Shown piece after piece: positions 1,043 to 28,555 of a stretch of DNA of 64,000 nt. The translations under genes were made by a program, and so were the position numbers. Every line of letters begins with the position of its first letter. Within the stretch, counting starts at the first letter, position 1. Source of the stretch: Escherichia coli (lineage in GTDB: Bacteria; Pseudomonadota; Gammaproteobacteria; Enterobacterales; Enterobacteriaceae); assembly GCF_030013595.1 (NCBI RefSeq), contig NZ_CP122768.1, one strand, 5' to 3'. The notes under the pieces are model-generated. The model was not told the origin of the DNA. It ran no database searches and saw only the letters and a list, made by a program, of their open reading frames with translations.

Positions 1043-1573
1043 TCAGGAACGTTTACGCGGCATCATGCGTAGAAGTGTGTTGTCCTTCCAGAAATAGTGG
1101 TGTGCCAGTGCAGCCGCAGCGTGCAACCCGATGACAAAATATCCCAGATTCGCCAGCATTTCATGCCACGACTTTAAGCTATCAACCCGTTCGAAATTGG
1201 CCTCTGATGCATAAGGCATCGTCAAACCAAACGCAAACCACGGGTTGCCTCGGTTATACATCATCACCAAACCAATCACTGGCAGCGCAATAAACAGGAG
1301 ATAAATCACCAAATGTCCCAAATGCGCCAGTCCCGTCATCATCGGTTTTGGCTTAGGTATAATCGGCGGGGTTGGGTATTTCAGCCTTAACAAAAGACGA
1401 ACGACCATCAGCACGAGAATTGATATGCCACAGGAAACATGAATCATGTTGATGAGTGGCCGATCGCTACGTGGGAAGAAACCCCGAAACTCCATTGCGC
1501 AATACGCTGCGATAACCAGCATAAAGACCAGCCAGTGAATGCTGATTTGTAACCTTGAGTATTTATTTCCCAT
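1043..1573 (-). CDS. cybB: cytochrome b561
   Basis: Multi-pass membrane protein with conserved His residues; start placed at internal Met (MGNKYSRLQ...) giving 176 aa; gene order matches K-12. Confidence 0.85.
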   Translation of the reverse strand: MGNKYSRLQISIHWLVFMLVIAAYCAMEFRGFFPRSDRPLINMIHVSCGISILVLMVVRLLLRLKYPTPPIIPKPKPMMTGLAHLGHLVIYLLFIALPVIGLVMMYNRGNPWFAFGLTMPYASEANFERVDSLKSWHEMLANLGYFVIGLHAAAALAHHYFWKDNTLLRMMPRKRS

Positions 1574-1761
1574 AACATTTCCTGCTTTAACATAATTTTC
1601 CGTTAACATAACGGGCTTTTCTTAAAATTTCATTAAATATTGTTCACCCGTTTTCAGTACGTTACGTTTCACGGCAAGAATGTAGATTGCCCATCCCGCC
1701 ATCCTGGTCTAAGCCTGGAAAGGATCAATTTTCATCCGAACGTTCCTGACAGGAGAAGACC

Positions 1762-2763
1762 ATGAGTAAAGTTGGTATTAACGGTTTTGGTCGTATCGGT
1801 CGACTGGTGTTGCGTCGATTACTTGAAGTCAAAAGCAACATAGACATTGTCGCTATTAATGATCTCACTTCCCCAAAAATTCTCGCCTACCTGCTGAAAC
1901 ATGATTCAAACTACGGACCATTCCCCTGGAGCGTTGATTTTACGGAAGATTCACTTATCGTTGATGGAAAAAGTATCGCGGTTTACGCCGAAAAAGAGGC
2001 TAAAAATATTCCATGGAAAGCGAAAGGCGCAGAAATCATTGTCGAATGTACTGGCTTTTATACCTCCGCCGATAAATCGCAGGCGCACCTTGATGCTGGT
2101 GCGAAGAAGGTGTTGATTTCCGCCCCTGCCGGTGAAATGAAAACCATCGTTTATAACGTCAATGACGACACACTGGATGGCAACGACACCATTGTTTCCG
2201 TGGCGTCATGCACCACTAATTGTCTTGCACCGATGGCCAAAGCCTTGCACGACAGTTTCGGAATAGAAGTCGGCACGATGACGACCATTCATGCCTATAC
2301 CGGCACTCAGTCACTGGTGGATGGCCCGCGTGGTAAAGATTTACGTGCTTCACGCGCAGCGGCAGAAAATATCATTCCCCACACTACGGGGGCGGCAAAA
2401 GCCATTGGTCTGGTGATCCCGGAACTGAGCGGCAAACTGAAAGGTCATGCGCAACGCGTACCCGTGAAAACAGGTTCGGTGACTGAACTGGTGTCTATTC
2501 TTGGAAAAAAAGTGACTGCCGAAGAGGTGAACAACGCGCTTAAAAAGGCGACAAACAATAATGAGTCATTTGGTTATACCGATGAAGAAATAGTCTCTTC
2601 CGATATCATTGGCAGCCATTTCGGTTCGGTGTTTGATGCCACGCAAACGGAAATTACCGCCGTGGGCGATTTACAGCTGGTGAAAACGGTCGCCTGGTAC
2701 GATAACGAATATGGCTTCGTCACACAGCTCATTCGCACCCTCGAAAAATTCGCTAAACTCTGA
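1762..2763 (+). CDS. gapC: glyceraldehyde-3-phosphate dehydrogenase, intact
   Basis: 333-aa ORF with NAD-binding N-terminus [10 protein letters not shown] and catalytic SCTTNCLAP motif; uninterrupted here. Confidence 0.9.
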
Positions 2764-2772
2764 CGCACACAG

Positions 2773-2793
2773 GCGGAGGAAAAACCTCCGCCT
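2773..2793. terminator. bidirectional rho-independent terminator between convergent gapC and aldA
   Basis: ggcggagg-aaaaa-cctccgcc hairpin flanked by A/T runs. Confidence 0.5.
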
Positions 2794-2803
2794 CTTCCAC
2801 TCA

Positions 2804-4243
2804 TTAAGACTGTAAATAAACCACCTGGGTCTGCAGATATTCATGCAGGCCATGTTTACCATCTGCGCCGCCAATACCGGATTTACGCCATCCGGCGTGG
2901 AAGCCTTGCATAGCTTCGAAGTTTTCACGGTTGATGTAAGTTTCACCAAACTTCAGCCCTTTAATGGCTTTCATCGCGACGTTCAGATTTTGGGTATAGA
3001 TTGATGAGGTCAGGCCGTAATCACTGTCATTCGCCATTGCGATAGCATCTTCCAGCGTGTCAAATGCGACCACCGGCAGAACCGGGCCAAAGGTTTCCTC
3101 ATGCATAATCGACATTTCCTGGCGAACATCCAGCAGCAATGTCGGCGGATAATAATATCCTTTCCCCTCTACCGCTTTGCCACCCAACGCCACTCTCGCC
3201 CCTTCTTCTACTGCGCGCGCCACTTTTTGCTCGACCCTTTCCAGCGCCGCGGCGTTAATCAACGGCCCCATCGCAATGTCGTTGCGTTCTGCGGGGTTAC
3301 CAAATTGAACCGCCTGCAACGCTTCACCCAGCCGATTGACGAACTGATCATAAATGCCTTTCTGTACATAAACACGTTCTGCACAGTTACACACTTGCCC
3401 ACTATTAATGACGCGTGAATCAACGATGGCTTTGACTGCCAGTTCAAGATCGGCATCGTCCATTACGATAGCTGGTGCTTTACCCCCCAATTCCAGGCAC
3501 ACTTTGGTGATGTTTTTCGCCGCAGTCGCCATGATCTTTTCACCTGCAGAGACGCTGCCTGTCATACTGACCATTGCGACCTTTGGGTTACCCGCCAGTT
3601 CTTGCCCAACGGTTTCACCACGCCCCAGAACAAGGTTAAACACGCCGCGCGGAAGGCCTATTTCATCGACGATTTTGGCGAATGCAATCGCATTGTTTGG
3701 CGTAAATTCACTGGGTTTAATGACAATGGTATTACCAGTCAAAAGAGCGGGAGCCATTTTGCGGGCAATGAGGAAGAACGGGAAGTTCCACGGCAGAATG
3801 CCGGTAGTCACACCAAGCGCACGTTTAAACAGAAGAATATTTTCTCCTGGACGATCGCTTTGAATAATCTCGCCCTCGTAACGCCGTGCCCACTCCGCCA
3901 TGTAATCGATATAGTCCGCAGTAAAAGCCACTTCGACTTCAGCCAGCTGCTGGATCTTGCCCCCTTCTTCAACAATCAGCGCACTGATTTCACTGGCGCG
4001 TTCGCGGATCCCGGCGGAGATTTTGCGCAACCAACTGGCGCGTTCAATGGCAGGCAACGCTTCCCATTCTGGTTGTGCACGTTCTGCTGCATCGATTGCC
4101 TTACGGGCATCCTCGGCCTGACCATCGGGAATGCGGGAAATGACAACCTCAGTAGCAGGGTTTACCACATCAATCCATGCGTCTCCACGCCAGGTAACAA
4201 ACTGTCCATCGATATACATAGGATGTTGAACGGGTACTGACAT
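2804..4243 (-). CDS. aldA: lactaldehyde dehydrogenase (aldehyde dehydrogenase A)
   Basis: 479-aa ORF starting MSVPVQHPMYIDGQFV; ALDH family motifs including ELGGKAP and catalytic Cys region. Confidence 0.95.
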   Translation of the reverse strand: MSVPVQHPMYIDGQFVTWRGDAWIDVVNPATEVVISRIPDGQAEDARKAIDAAERAQPEWEALPAIERASWLRKISAGIRERASEISALIVEEGGKIQQLAEVEVAFTADYIDYMAEWARRYEGEIIQSDRPGENILLFKRALGVTTGILPWNFPFFLIARKMAPALLTGNTIVIKPSEFTPNNAIAFAKIVDEIGLPRGVFNLVLGRGETVGQELAGNPKVAMVSMTGSVSAGEKIMATAAKNITKVCLELGGKAPAIVMDDADLELAVKAIVDSRVINSGQVCNCAERVYVQKGIYDQFVNRLGEALQAVQFGNPAERNDIAMGPLINAAALERVEQKVARAVEEGARVALGGKAVEGKGYYYPPTLLLDVRQEMSIMHEETFGPVLPVVAFDTLEDAIAMANDSDYGLTSSIYTQNLNVAMKAIKGLKFGETYINRENFEAMQGFHAGWRKSGIGGADGKHGLHEYLQTQVVYLQS

Positions 4244-4439
4244 GGGCGACTCCTGTGATTTATATGTTTGTTTTCGGTGAATACATTGTTAATTAACATC
4301 AATCATCAAAGAGACGGCATCGTGAAAGGACAATTCTGTGAAGGGCTTCATAAAAACAAGTGTAAAAGGAATAAAAGGCAGAAATAAACGTCAGGAGTCA
4401 TGCCCGTTTGCAAACAAGTGGTTCACAAACGGGCAATTT

Positions 4440-17359: not shown

Positions 17360-18068
17360 AATATCCTCCGGCATAGCCGGAGGTTTTTCAAATGCGCCTG
17401 TAAGGCTCTGTTACCAGCCGCGCCCTAACAGGCGCATACGATCTGACATTTGCATTCAACTTCGTTACTTACGGCCCGTAAACGGGCTGCCCGGATATGG
17501 AATCGATAACTGCTCCCCCATTTTATCCTCTTCAAGCTGGTGCTTTATGTAGTCCTGTATCTTCGCCGTGTTCTTACCCACCGTATCGACATAGTACCCT
17601 CGGCACCAGAACTCCCTGTTTCTGTATTTGAATTTCAAATCCCCAAACTGCTCGTAAAGCATCAGACTGCTTTTCCCTTTCAGATATCCCATAAAGCCGG
17701 ATACGCTCATTTTGGGTGGGATTTCCACAAGCATATGGATATGATCTGCGCAGCACTCTGCTTCCAGAATCCGTACGCTTTTCCACTCACACAGCTTTCT
17801 CAAAATACTGCCTATCGCCCTACGCTTCTCTCCGTAAAACGCCAGTCTTCGGTATTTCGGCGCAAAAACTATGTGATATTTACAGTTCCAGCGGGTGTGC
17901 GCTAAGCTCTTTTCGTCCCCCATTGGGACCCCCTTTTGATTTCTTGTTTGACACTTGCAGTTGCCAGACCGCAAGGTGTTTTAACAAATCAAAAGGGGTT
18001 TTAATAACTGGCTCAAAGCTGAAAGCTTTCCGGAACCCCCAGCCTAGCTGGGGGTTTTCTGTGCACAA
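17360..18068 (-). mobile_element. IS200 insertion sequence (IS200/IS605 family), boundaries approximate
   Basis: Contains IS200-type TnpA; perfect palindrome aacccccagcctagctgggggtt (18036-18058) upstream of tnpA and a second inverted repeat (about 17388-17438) downstream, as expected for the structured, repeat-less ends of IS200. Confidence 0.6.
17465..17923 (-). CDS. tnpA: IS200 transposase TnpA (HUH/Y1 single-strand transposase)
   Basis: 152-aa product MGDEKSLAHTRWNCKYHIVFAPKYRR... with HUH motif (ADHIHML) and catalytic Tyr region; recalled IS200 TnpA sequence is near-identical. Confidence 0.9.
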   Translation of the reverse strand: MGDEKSLAHTRWNCKYHIVFAPKYRRLAFYGEKRRAIGSILRKLCEWKSVRILEAECCADHIHMLVEIPPKMSVSGFMGYLKGKSSLMLYEQFGDLKFKYRNREFWCRGYYVDTVGKNTAKIQDYIKHQLEEDKMGEQLSIPYPGSPFTGRK

Positions 18069-18072
18069 ATAA

Positions 18073-18103
18073 AAAACCGCAACCTGTATCAGCGTTGCGG
18101 TTT
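18073..18103 (-). terminator. rho-independent terminator downstream of paaY
   Basis: On the minus strand, stem aaccgcaac...gttgcggtt followed by TTTTTTATTT. Confidence 0.5.
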
Positions 18104-18145
18104 GTGTATCACATGCTAAAAATTAGAACGTCCAGCATCAGGACG

Positions 18146-18736
18146 TTACTGTTTCGGTCGCAGATTCTCATCAAATACCAGGCGCTGCCTGCCAGGTTCA
18201 ACTTCCCGCAATGGCTCGACTTGATGTAACGTCTGCTTACAGCGTGTCACCAGCACCTGGTACTCATGCGCACCCTGCTTTTTCCATGCCAACTCCTGCT
18301 CACTGAGTTCACGAATCGCTTTCGCCGGGCTGCCGACAATCAGGTAATTAGCTGGCATTTCTGCTTTGGCTTTCACAAATGCGGATGCGCCAACAATGCT
18401 GTTCTCGCCAATCACCGCACCGTCTATCACTACCGCGTTCATTCCCACTAATGCATTGCGGCGGATAATGCAGCCGTGAAGGATAGCGCTATGACCAATA
18501 TGTCCATCTTCTTCCACGACAGTATCCTGCTCGGGAAAACCGTGCATAACGCAATTATCCTGAATGTTCGCGCCATCTTTCACCACGATACGACCAAAAT
18601 CGCCACGCAGGCTGGCATTTGGCCCAACGTAAACACCCTTGCCGAGAATAACATCGCCGATCAATACCGCTGTCGGATGAACAAAACTCTCTTCTGGCAC
18701 AACCGGAGTCAGACCGTCTATCTGATAAATTGGCAT
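18146..18736 (-). CDS. paaY: hexapeptide-repeat (gamma-carbonic-anhydrase-like) protein PaaY
   Basis: 196-aa ORF with left-handed beta-helix hexapeptide repeats; recalled PaaY length and N-terminus ([11 protein letters not shown]) match. Confidence 0.85.
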
Positions 18737-18843
18737 AACGCGTCCTGTTCAATATTCAAGCCGCCAAAACGTTGAAAATACAGGCTTCCCGGCGCAGGCA
18801 GTTCACCGACCGAGGTTTCACCTTTTTCACTAACGAACGCTAA

Positions 18844-19077
18844 AGCAGCAGGCGCTACGCGCTGATAAAGTTTGCCGATAAAGGTTTGGTGGTCGCGCAA
18901 TATATTCGTAACCGTCGTCTCGATTTTTGTGCTGATGCGATTCGCCATGCCGCAGATGATGAAAAACTGGCAGGTATTGGCTTTCATTGGGGATTTTCCG
19001 ATCAGAGTCATTTTTCAACGGTATTTAAGCAACGCTTTGGGATGACGCCAGGCGAGTATCGACGTAAATTCCGCTAA
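18844..19077 (+). pseudogene. feaR: 3' remnant of AraC-family regulator feaR (C-terminal HTH only)
   Basis: In-frame stop at 18841; remaining frame encodes only the AraC-type second helix-turn-helix (IGFHWGFSDQSHFSTVFKQRFGMTPGEYRRKF); convergent with ydbL as in K-12. Confidence 0.6.
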
Positions 19078-24670: not shown

Positions 24671-27600
24671 ATGATTACTATTGACGGTAATGGCGCGGTT
24701 GCTTCGGTGGCGTTTCGCACCAGTGAAGTTATCGCCATCTACCCTATTACCCCCAGTTCCACAATGGCAGAACAGGCTGATGCCTGGGCCGGAAACGGCT
24801 TGAAGAACGTTTGGGGAGACACACCACGCGTGGTTGAAATGCAGTCGGAAGCGGGTGCTATCGCTACCGTGCATGGCGCTTTGCAGACGGGTGCCCTTTC
24901 AACATCGTTTACGTCATCGCAGGGTTTGCTGCTGATGATCCCGACGCTGTACAAACTGGCAGGCGAACTGACGCCATTTGTCCTGCATGTAGCGGCACGT
25001 ACCGTTGCCACACATGCACTCTCTATTTTTGGCGATCATTCCGACGTTATGGCGGTGCGCCAGACGGGTTGCGCGATGTTGTGTGCGGCTAACGTCCAGG
25101 AAGCGCAAGACTTTGCTCTCATTTCGCACATCGCAACGCTGAAGAGCCGCGTGCCATTTATTCATTTCTTTGATGGTTTCCGCACGTCCCACGAAATCAA
25201 TAAAATTGTCCCGCTGGCCGATGACACTATTCTTGATCTCATGCCGCAGGCCGAAATTGATGCTCATCGCGCCCGGGCGCTCAACCCGGAACATCCGGTG
25301 ATCCGCGGTACGTCCGCCAATCCTGACACTTATTTCCAGTCTCGCGAAGCCACCAACCCGTGGTACAACGCAGTTTACGACCATGTTGAACAGGCGATGA
25401 ATGATTTCGCTGCCGCGACAGGTCGTCAGTATCAGCCGTTTGAGTATTACGGGCATCCGCAAGCGGAACGGGTGATTATCCTGATGGACTCTGCCATTGG
25501 CACCTGTGAAGAAGTCGTTGATGAATTGCTAACCCGTGGCGAAAAAGTCGGCGTGCTGAAAGTTCGCCTGTACCGTCCCTTCTCCGCCAAACACTTGCTA
25601 CAAGCTCTGCCGGGATCCGTACGCAGCGTGGCGGTACTGGACAGAACCAAAGAACCCGGTGCCCAGGCTGAACCGCTCTATCTGGATGTGATGACCGCAC
25701 TGGCAGAAGCCTTTAATAATGGCGAGCGCGAAACCCTGCCCCGTGTCATTGGTGGGCGCTATGGTCTTTCATCCAAAGAATTTGGCCCGGACTGTGTACT
25801 GGCGGTATTTGCCGAGCTCAACGCGGCTAAACCGAAAGCGCGCTTTACGGTTGGTATTTACGATGATGTGACCAATCTGTCACTGCCGTTGCCGGAAAAC
25901 ACCCTGCCAAACTCGGCGAAACTTGAAGCCTTGTTTTATGGCCTTGGTAGTGATGGCAGCGTTTCCGCGACCAAAAACAATATCAAGATTATCGGTAATT
26001 CCACGCCGTGGTACGCACAGGGCTATTTTGTTTACGACTCCAAAAAGGCGGGCGGCCTGACGGTTTCTCACCTTCGCGTGAGCGAGCAGCCGATTCGTTC
26101 CGCTTATCTGATTTCCCAGGCTGATTTTGTTGGCTGCCACCAGTTGCAGTTTATTGATAAATATCAGATGGCTGAACGTTTAAAACCTGGCGGCATTTTC
26201 CTGCTCAACACACCGTACAGCGCAGATGAAGTATGGTCGCGCTTGCCGCAGGAAGTTCAGGCCGTGTTAAACCAGAAAAAGGCGCGCTTCTATGTGATTA
26301 ACGCGGCGAAAATCGCCCGCGAATGTGGCCTGGCGGCCCGTATTAATACCGTCATGCAGATGGCTTTTTTCCATCTGACGCAAATTCTGCCTGGCGATAG
26401 CGCCCTCGCAGAATTGCAGGGTGCGATTGCCAAAAGTTACAGTAGCAAAGGTCAGGATCTGGTGGAGCGCAACTGGCAGGCTCTGGCGCTGGCGCGTGAA
26501 TCCGTAGAAGAAGTTCCGTTGCAGCCGGTTAATCCGCACAGCGCCAATCGACCGCCTGTGGTTTCCGATGCCGCTCCTGATTTCGTGAAAACCGTTACCG
26601 CGGCGATGCTCGCCGGGCTTGGTGATGCCCTCCCCGTTTCGGCGCTGCCGCCAGACGGCACCTGGCCGATGGGCACCACGCGCTGGGAAAAACGCAATAT
26701 CGCCGAAGAGATCCCCATCTGGAAAGAGGAACTCTGTACCCAATGTAACCACTGCGTCGCCGCTTGCCCACACTCAGCTATTCGCGCAAAAGTGGTACCG
26801 CCTGAAGCGATGGAAAACGCCCCTGCCAGCCTGCATTCGCTGGATGTGAAATCGCGTGATATGCGCGGGCAGAAATATGTCTTGCAGGTGGCACCGGAAG
26901 ATTGCACCGGTTGTAACCTGTGCGTCGAAGTTTGCCCGGCGAAAGACCGTCAGAATCCAGAGATTAAAGCCATCAATATGATGTCGCGGCTGGAACATGT
27001 CGAAGAAGAGAAAATCAATTACGATTTCTTCCTCAACCTGCCAGAAATCGACCGTAGCAAACTGGAACGTATTGATATTCGTACATCGCAGCTGATTACA
27101 CCGCTGTTTGAATATTCCGGTGCTTGCTCCGGTTGTGGCGAGACGCCGTATATTAAATTGCTGACTCAGCTCTATGGCGACCGGATGTTGATCGCTAACG
27201 CCACCGGCTGTTCTTCAATTTATGGCGGTAACCTGCCCTCTACACCGTATACCACCGATACCAACGGTCGTGGACCGGCATGGGCGAACTCGCTGTTTGA
27301 AGATAACGCCGAATTTGGCCTTGGTTTCCGCCTGACGGTCGATCAACACCGTGTCCGCGTGCTGCGTCTGCTGGATCAATTTGCCGATAAAATCCCGGCG
27401 GAATTACTAACTGCGTTGAAATCAGACGCCAAGCCAGAGGTTCGTCGTGAACAGGTTGCAGCTTTACGCCAGCAACTCAACGATGTTGCCGAAGCACATG
27501 AACTGCTACGTGACGCAGATGCACTGGTAGAAAAATCAATCTGGCTGATTGGTGGCGACGGCTGGGCTTACGATATCGGCTTTGGCGGTCTGGATCATGT

Positions 27601-28195: not shown

Positions 28196-28221
28196 ATGCT
28201 CTGGATAAGAATTATCCAATT

Positions 28222-28328
28222 CTAAAAAAAAGCCCGAACGACTGTTCGGGCTTGTCTCATTATTTGTTGGATAAACAGTAACAAGGGTCCAACAGAAAAT
28301 AATCTTTGTGACAATAAAGGCATATAAC
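28222..28328 (-). ncRNA. micC: MicC small regulatory RNA (Hfq-dependent, represses ompC)
   Basis: Minus-strand sequence GTTATATGCCTTTATTGTCAC...AAGCCCGAACAGTCGTTCGGGCTTTTTTTT matches the recalled MicC sequence, including its terminator; located between pfo and ompN as in K-12. Confidence 0.8.
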
Positions 28329-28555
28329 CCGCGAAGAATAACGTATAGCAAATTAAAAGTATAATTTTTATTTTGTATGTATTATCTTCGATACATTCAC
28401 CAGACTTATTATCATTTCAGAAGAATTATTTGATTAAGGTTTTACTTAAGGCGTAACAAATGATATTTATCGGCTAACTGAACTTCTCCTTTAGGATGTT
28501 TTCACTCCCCGAAATGGGGATAAAAGGCAAATAAAATAACTAAAGGATTTATTCA

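Follow-up and report, generated by a model that had tools for sequence, protein, structure and literature searches.

The 64,000-nucleotide stretch of Escherichia coli DNA analysed here (the window) almost certainly carries the ancestral, undamaged chromosomal gapC in its usual place between cybB and aldA, where it would encode a type I NAD-dependent phosphorylating glyceraldehyde-3-phosphate dehydrogenase (GAPDH). An earlier note on this DNA had suggested, with a hedge, a second working GAPDH in the strain. Purifying selection on the gene, together with a product identical at 329 of 333 residues to an active enzyme, supports that suggestion, and on this sequence evidence the strain very probably possesses two GAPDHs capable of catalysis, GapA and GapC. 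The finding is correct but ordinary: the gene is known, and the product of a near-identical allele has already been crystallised and assayed. An intact gapC is the majority state of the species, as was already known, and K-12 is the exception.

The gapC locus and its signals

Both the list of open reading frames and the raw sequence give a single unbroken ATG-to-TGA frame of 333 codons on the plus strand (Table 1), as the earlier note had proposed in coordinates and in length. The surrounding gene order, trg-hokB-ydcA-cybB-gapC-aldA-ydcF-hrpA, is the same as in K-12, and the neighbourhood in the window comprises hokB/sokB, ydcA, RydC, cybB (-), gapC (+), aldA (-), ydcF and hrpA. The frame has the setting of E. 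coli gapC, with a divergent cybB on one side and a convergent aldA on the other in an order that matches K-12 and 17 other genomes, and it shares 95.5-100% nucleotide identity over 1002 bp with other E. coli gapC sequences.

Table 1. Features of the gapC locus, in positions of the window
Feature	Position	Strand	Description	Basis
gapC coding sequence	1762..2763	+	333 codons plus TGA; predicted type I NAD-dependent glyceraldehyde-3-phosphate dehydrogenase	
Shine-Dalgarno AGGAG	1751..1755	+	6 nt 5' of the gapC ATG	read from sequence
Codon 39, AAA (Lys)	1876..1878	+	TAA in K-12	K-12 alignment and 41-mer counts
A7 homopolymer, Gly248-Lys249-Lys250	2505..2511	+	A6 in K-12, where the frame shifts	alignment
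Catalytic nucleophile, Cys150 codon TGC	2209..2211	+	within SCTTNC	read from sequence
Catalytic base, His177 codon CAT	2290..2292	+		read from sequence
cybB-gapC divergent spacer	1574..1761		presumed site of the gapC promoter	cybB end at 1573 annotated in identical genomes
9-bp GC-rich hairpin (GGCGGAGG-AAAAA-CCTCCGCC region)	2771..2793	.	inside the 40 bp that separate gapC from the convergent aldA	

The mechanical reading frame of cybB runs from 1043 to 1609 (-), giving 188 aa from an ATG at 1609; RefSeq annotates 176 aa (1043-1573) in identical genomes. The cybB-gapC spacer is therefore taken as 188 bp, not 152 bp. A consensus scan of 1550-2900 finds no sigma-70-like site within this spacer, and the sole plus-strand match, at 1567-1596, is placed inside the annotated cybB coding sequence and does not rise above shuffled sequence. 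Nor does the spacer hold a CRP-like site with two or fewer mismatches to the consensus. The best CRP-consensus match near gapC is TGTGAAGGGCTTCATA, with one mismatch, at 4337-4352 (+) in the aldA-ydcF spacer upstream of aldA; aldA is a CRP-activated gene, and across the whole window CRP-consensus sites are no more numerous than expected by chance.

Downstream of gapC, the hairpin at 2771-2793 folds with -18.2 kcal/mol, a z-score of -4.74 against 200 shuffled sequences, not one of which is equally stable. It lacks a clear T-tract on both strands and is not called by the terminator scan. Its probable role, given its unusual stability, is that of a terminator shared by gapC and aldA.

Three known small RNAs are matched at Rfam gathering thresholds in the window: sok, of hokB/sokB, at 268-419; RydC at 969-1032, just downstream of cybB; and MicC at 28216-28331, upstream of ompN. 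IS1 activity at the gapC locus is recurrent in other strains. BL21(DE3) has IS1A in the cybB-gapC spacer (1563-2260 of the related locus) with gapC intact downstream, and the raw-milk isolate SCPM-O-B-7615 has IS1A between a truncated gapC and a truncated aldA (2850-3619 of the related locus).

Comparison with gapC of K-12

The orthologous stretch of MG1655, 1001 bp long, is annotated as the pseudogene gapC b4493, and differs from gapC of the window at 37 positions. Alignment to the K-12 region, which the earlier note had named as its check, bears out that K-12 gapC is a disrupted pseudogene and places its two disabling lesions: an AAA-to-TAA nonsense change at codon 39 (window position 1876), and an A7 run shorter by one base, which shifts the frame after Gly248. 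Neither disruption is present in the window, which has AAA and A7 at the two sites diagnostic of the K-12-type pseudogene (TAA39 plus A6 at codons 248-250) and shows no frameshift elsewhere in the gene; the R18G substitution that K-12 gapC also carries is likewise absent. AAA and A7 are found in BL21(DE3), O157:H7, O55:H7 and all remaining sampled strains outside the K-12 lineage, and the K-12 lesions are therefore derived.

Frequency of intact gapC in Escherichia coli

The gapC locus is present in 5417 of 5426 complete E. coli genomes. Alleles were counted with 41-mer queries centred on each lesion, for which the 28-base word of megablast means that only exact carriers of an allele are matched. 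The K-12 nonsense allele (TAA39) occurs in 1155 of the 5426 genomes (21%), the wild-type allele at codon 39 in at least 3718, and the K-12 A6 haplotype in 1050. Five of the gapC matches fall on plasmid-class records, which may be wrongly assigned replicons, or plasmids that have picked up a piece of chromosome.

Intactness was checked by translation in a sample of 17 genomes, most of them spread evenly along the similarity ranking. An intact 333-codon gapC, annotated as a normal coding sequence, is present in 14, which are all of the full-length sampled alleles that lack the K-12 lesions. Two genomes, both of natural isolates from people in Saudi Arabia and Tanzania, carry the K-12-type pseudogene, annotated "frameshifted; internal stop", and in the remaining one an IS1-associated deletion has removed the 3' parts of gapC and aldA. 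Together, the 41-mer counts and the sample put intact gapC at approximately 75-79% of E. coli.

The K-12 double lesion (TAA39 plus A6) is found in numerous isolates from outside the laboratory, their sources being human stool, a neonate swab, poultry, cattle, a pig, soil, sediment and beach water. Because many natural isolates share it, it would seem to mark a lineage and not to be an artefact of laboratory culture. The lesions appear to be older than laboratory domestication, at odds with the usual wording that laboratory strains accumulate mutations; this modestly refines the way the literature puts the matter.

Selection on gapC and its physiological role

Selection on gapC is strongly purifying. 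Among 13 strains with intact alleles, dN/dS by the Nei-Gojobori method is 0.045 for gapC, 0.053 for aldA and 0.085 for cybB; across 15 intact gapC alleles it is 0.043, and the 75 variable sites in their alignment fall overwhelmingly at third codon positions. Since the gapC value is close to those of aldA and cybB, selection on the gene is as strict as on its functional neighbours.

In the source strain gapC is presumably transcribed and translated. What it does there can be approached through the literature: Espinosa-Urgel & Kolter (1998), as cited in PMC2949598, described environmental isolates as carrying intact gapC, expressed preferentially in fresh water, which suggests conditional expression outside the host, in fresh water for example. 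A fuller reading would have gapC kept by niche-specific selection as a conditional second GAPDH, its loss being a natural, lineage-wide event and not a product of laboratory domestication; we offer it tentatively and regard it, taken whole, as rather unlikely.

An improbable alternative is that gapC is intact yet cryptic, an unexpressed relic that has not so far acquired a disabling mutation, with GapA as the sole working GAPDH. The cybB-gapC spacer, devoid of a recognisable sigma-70 promoter or CRP site, would fit such a gene, as would its loss in about one-fifth of E. coli genomes with no obvious harm, and the IS1 insertions and deletions at the locus (BL21, SCPM-O-B-7615) point to dispensability in some lineages. 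An unexpressed gene would nevertheless not be expected to show, over diverse lineages, a dN/dS near 0.045 that is no higher than those of its functional neighbours, and the 14 intact alleles of 14 in the genome sample argue in the same direction. So does the gapC promoter, reported in the literature as environment-responsive (PMC2949598).

Protein family, active site and a characterised near-identical enzyme

The preferred reading, a working phosphorylating GAPDH, is borne out at the level of the protein. Pfam PF00044 (Gp_dh_N) matches residues 3-102 (122.7 bits, E 9e-36) and PF02800 (Gp_dh_C) residues 155-313 (196.1 bits, E 4e-58), each over the full length of the profile. The type I GAPDH equivalog TIGR01534 (EC 1.2.1.12) scores 446.2 bits against a curated cut-off of 367.2 and is covered from 1 to 330 of 330. 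The catalytic Cys motif that the earlier note had pointed out is there in the translation as S-C150-TTNC, together with His177. The full set of functional residues, G8-x-G10-R11-I12-G13, D34, K78, S120, S149, C150, H177, T180, R198, T209-G210 and R232, aligns with the counterparts in GapA. GapC thus combines the two domains and an equivalog score above cut-off with the Cys/His pair, the NAD-binding GxGxxG and Asp34 (NAD preference), and its phosphate-site residues Thr180, Arg198, Thr209-Gly210 and Arg232 are all present.

More specific models fit less well. GapC stays below the cut-off of the GapA model PRK15425 (300.7 bits vs 662). Assignment as Epd is rejected by PRK13535 and TIGR01532 (279.6 vs 539 and 276.3 vs 530.55), and assignment as an ArsJ-associated GAPDH by a score of 306.9 against a cut-off of 450.

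A PDB search matches GapC over all 333 residues to 7C5F, 7C5H, 7C5P and 7C7K at 725 bits with 329 of 333 residues identical. The differences from 7C5F (I29V, D104E, K262Q and N265T) are exactly those from the BL21-type allele WP_000048667.1, and the strain behind 7C5F was in all likelihood a carrier of that allele. The crystallised protein, named EcGAPDH1, is an active NAD-dependent GAPDH on D-glyceraldehyde-3-phosphate (G3P), with a KM of 0.73 mM for G3P; no activity is left after the C150A change, H177A costs the enzyme a factor of about 8000, and the crystals hold NAD, phosphate, G3P and the thioacyl intermediate (PMC8615399). NAD+-dependent oxidative phosphorylation of D-G3P is demonstrated only for this BL21-type allele, 98.8% identical to GapC of the window. 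By the standard mechanism expected for GapC, Cys150, activated by His177, would form a thiohemiacetal with G3P; hydride would pass to NAD+; and inorganic phosphate would attack the thioacyl intermediate to release 1,3-bisphosphoglycerate.

Substrate divergence among E. coli GAPDH paralogues has a precedent in Epd, and GapC might accordingly be active but non-glycolytic, whether as an Epd/GapB-like erythrose-4-phosphate dehydrogenase, as an arsenate-resistance GAPDH or mainly as a moonlighting or surface protein. Its nearest solved relatives from outside E. coli are also far more distant, the closest being 6iqm at 484 bits against 725 for E. coli 7C5F. We nevertheless consider such a role highly improbable: the erythrose-4-phosphate dehydrogenase and ArsJ-associated models stay far under their cut-offs where the generic type I equivalog is passed, and the 98.8%-identical enzyme uses D-G3P and NAD+, with structures that capture G3P, phosphate and the thioacyl intermediate (PMC8615399).

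A rare and mosaic allele

The chance that the intactness of gapC is an assembly or sequencing artefact, such as a miscalled A7 length, is negligible: homopolymers like that of the K-12 frameshift are a classic site of sequencing error, but the 1002-bp sequence recurs unchanged in three complete genomes of independent assembly (100% identity; RefSeq intact coding sequence WP_064226498.1), which makes a frameshift from sequencing error very unlikely, A7 is found in all sampled alleles outside the K-12 lineage, and the absence of the K-12 nonsense codon is not a homopolymer matter.

The ancestral, intact gene is here represented by a rare allele, found at 99% identity or more in only 4 of 5417 genomes, with the next best match at 98.3%. 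These four are 2012C-4221, two pig isolates (Winchester, UK) and an ivory-gull isolate. Asp104 is private to the allele, the other 14 sampled alleles having Glu; the substitution is conservative and lies outside the cofactor and catalytic positions listed above.

The divergence of gapC is out of step with that of its flanks. JCH767 is 99.1% identical to the window in cybB, 100% in the spacer and 99.6% in aldA, but 96.7% in gapC. Synonymous divergence from the window, gapC vs aldA, is 0.138 vs 0.012 in JCH767, 0.185 vs 0.030 in O55:H7 and 0.128 vs 0.049 in AH01, and is reversed in EC6868 (0.084 vs 0.123); in three of the four strains compared, synonymous divergence in gapC thus exceeds that in aldA 2-10-fold. 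A central block of gapC (positions 384-801) matches EC6868, unlike most other strains. The mosaic is suggestive of homologous recombination at gapC, which is ordinary for E. coli and would have no bearing on function, and it hints at a recombinational exchange of old allele classes.

Other features of the window

The window runs colinear with HCP5S3_I2, the complete genome closest to it, as far as 30489, and the two part at ttcA or immediately beside it. In K-12 the attachment site of the Rac prophage lies in ttcA. Reading frames in 30490-64000 match PHROGs tail fibres, tail sheath, baseplate hub, portal, large terminase and Ant anti-repressor, and the segment is, by these predicted products, a myovirus-type prophage. 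It is absent from HCP5S3_I2 and 2012C-4221, the two nearest complete genomes compared, both of which share the gapC allele of the window. An Rfam sRNA-Xcc1 match at 38469-38552 (+), with 78 bits against a gathering score of 53, is part of the prophage and shortly precedes the Ant-like anti-repressor frame at 38586-39149.

Colinearity with the annotation of HCP5S3_I2 indicates that the phenylacetate (paa) cluster at 17465-18869 is reduced to paaY and a paaX fragment. An IS200/IS605 tnpA (Rfam STnc490 match at 17933-18056) stands where 2012C-4221 has pdxI/ydbC. The gene nifJ/ydbK, for pyruvate:flavodoxin oxidoreductase, is apparently uninterrupted at 26729-26739, where HCP5S3_I2, otherwise 99.96% identical, has an inserted ISVsa5 (IS4 family); the overlapping ends of the HCP5S3_I2 alignment at these positions suggest the target-site duplication of ISVsa5.

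Implications and comparison with known systems

Metabolic models transferred from K-12 leave out GapC; those of this strain, like those of most E. coli other than K-12, ought to permit a second GAPDH reaction. Predictions of gapA essentiality for strains with an intact gapC should be treated with care. The case is also one of reference bias, what seems unusual relative to K-12 being the norm of the species.

The K-12 pseudogene (b4493, formerly gapC_1 b1417 and gapC_2 b1416) resembles gapC of the window in its position between cybB and aldA and in its nucleotide sequence (96.7% identity), and differs from it in the TAA at codon 39, the A7 run shortened by 1 bp and R18G. GapA (b1779), the housekeeping glycolytic GAPDH, shares with GapC the fold family, the SCTTNC motif with its His, and the NAD-binding GxGxxG with its Asp. 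It is, however, only 46% identical and is encoded at another chromosomal locus, about 370 kb away in K-12; by these measures GapC is a paralogue of GapA, not a copy. Epd (GapB), the erythrose-4-phosphate dehydrogenase, belongs to the same GAPDH superfamily, but GapC scores far under the cut-offs of the models for that enzyme. The closest known system is EcGAPDH1 of the BL21 type (WP_000048667.1), a 333-aa product of the same locus in which all catalytic and NAD- and phosphate-binding residues are identical to those of GapC of the window. BL21 differs from the window in the IS1 upstream of gapC, and the two proteins are set apart by four conservative substitutions (I29 vs V, D104 vs E, K262 vs Q and N265 vs T, window first).
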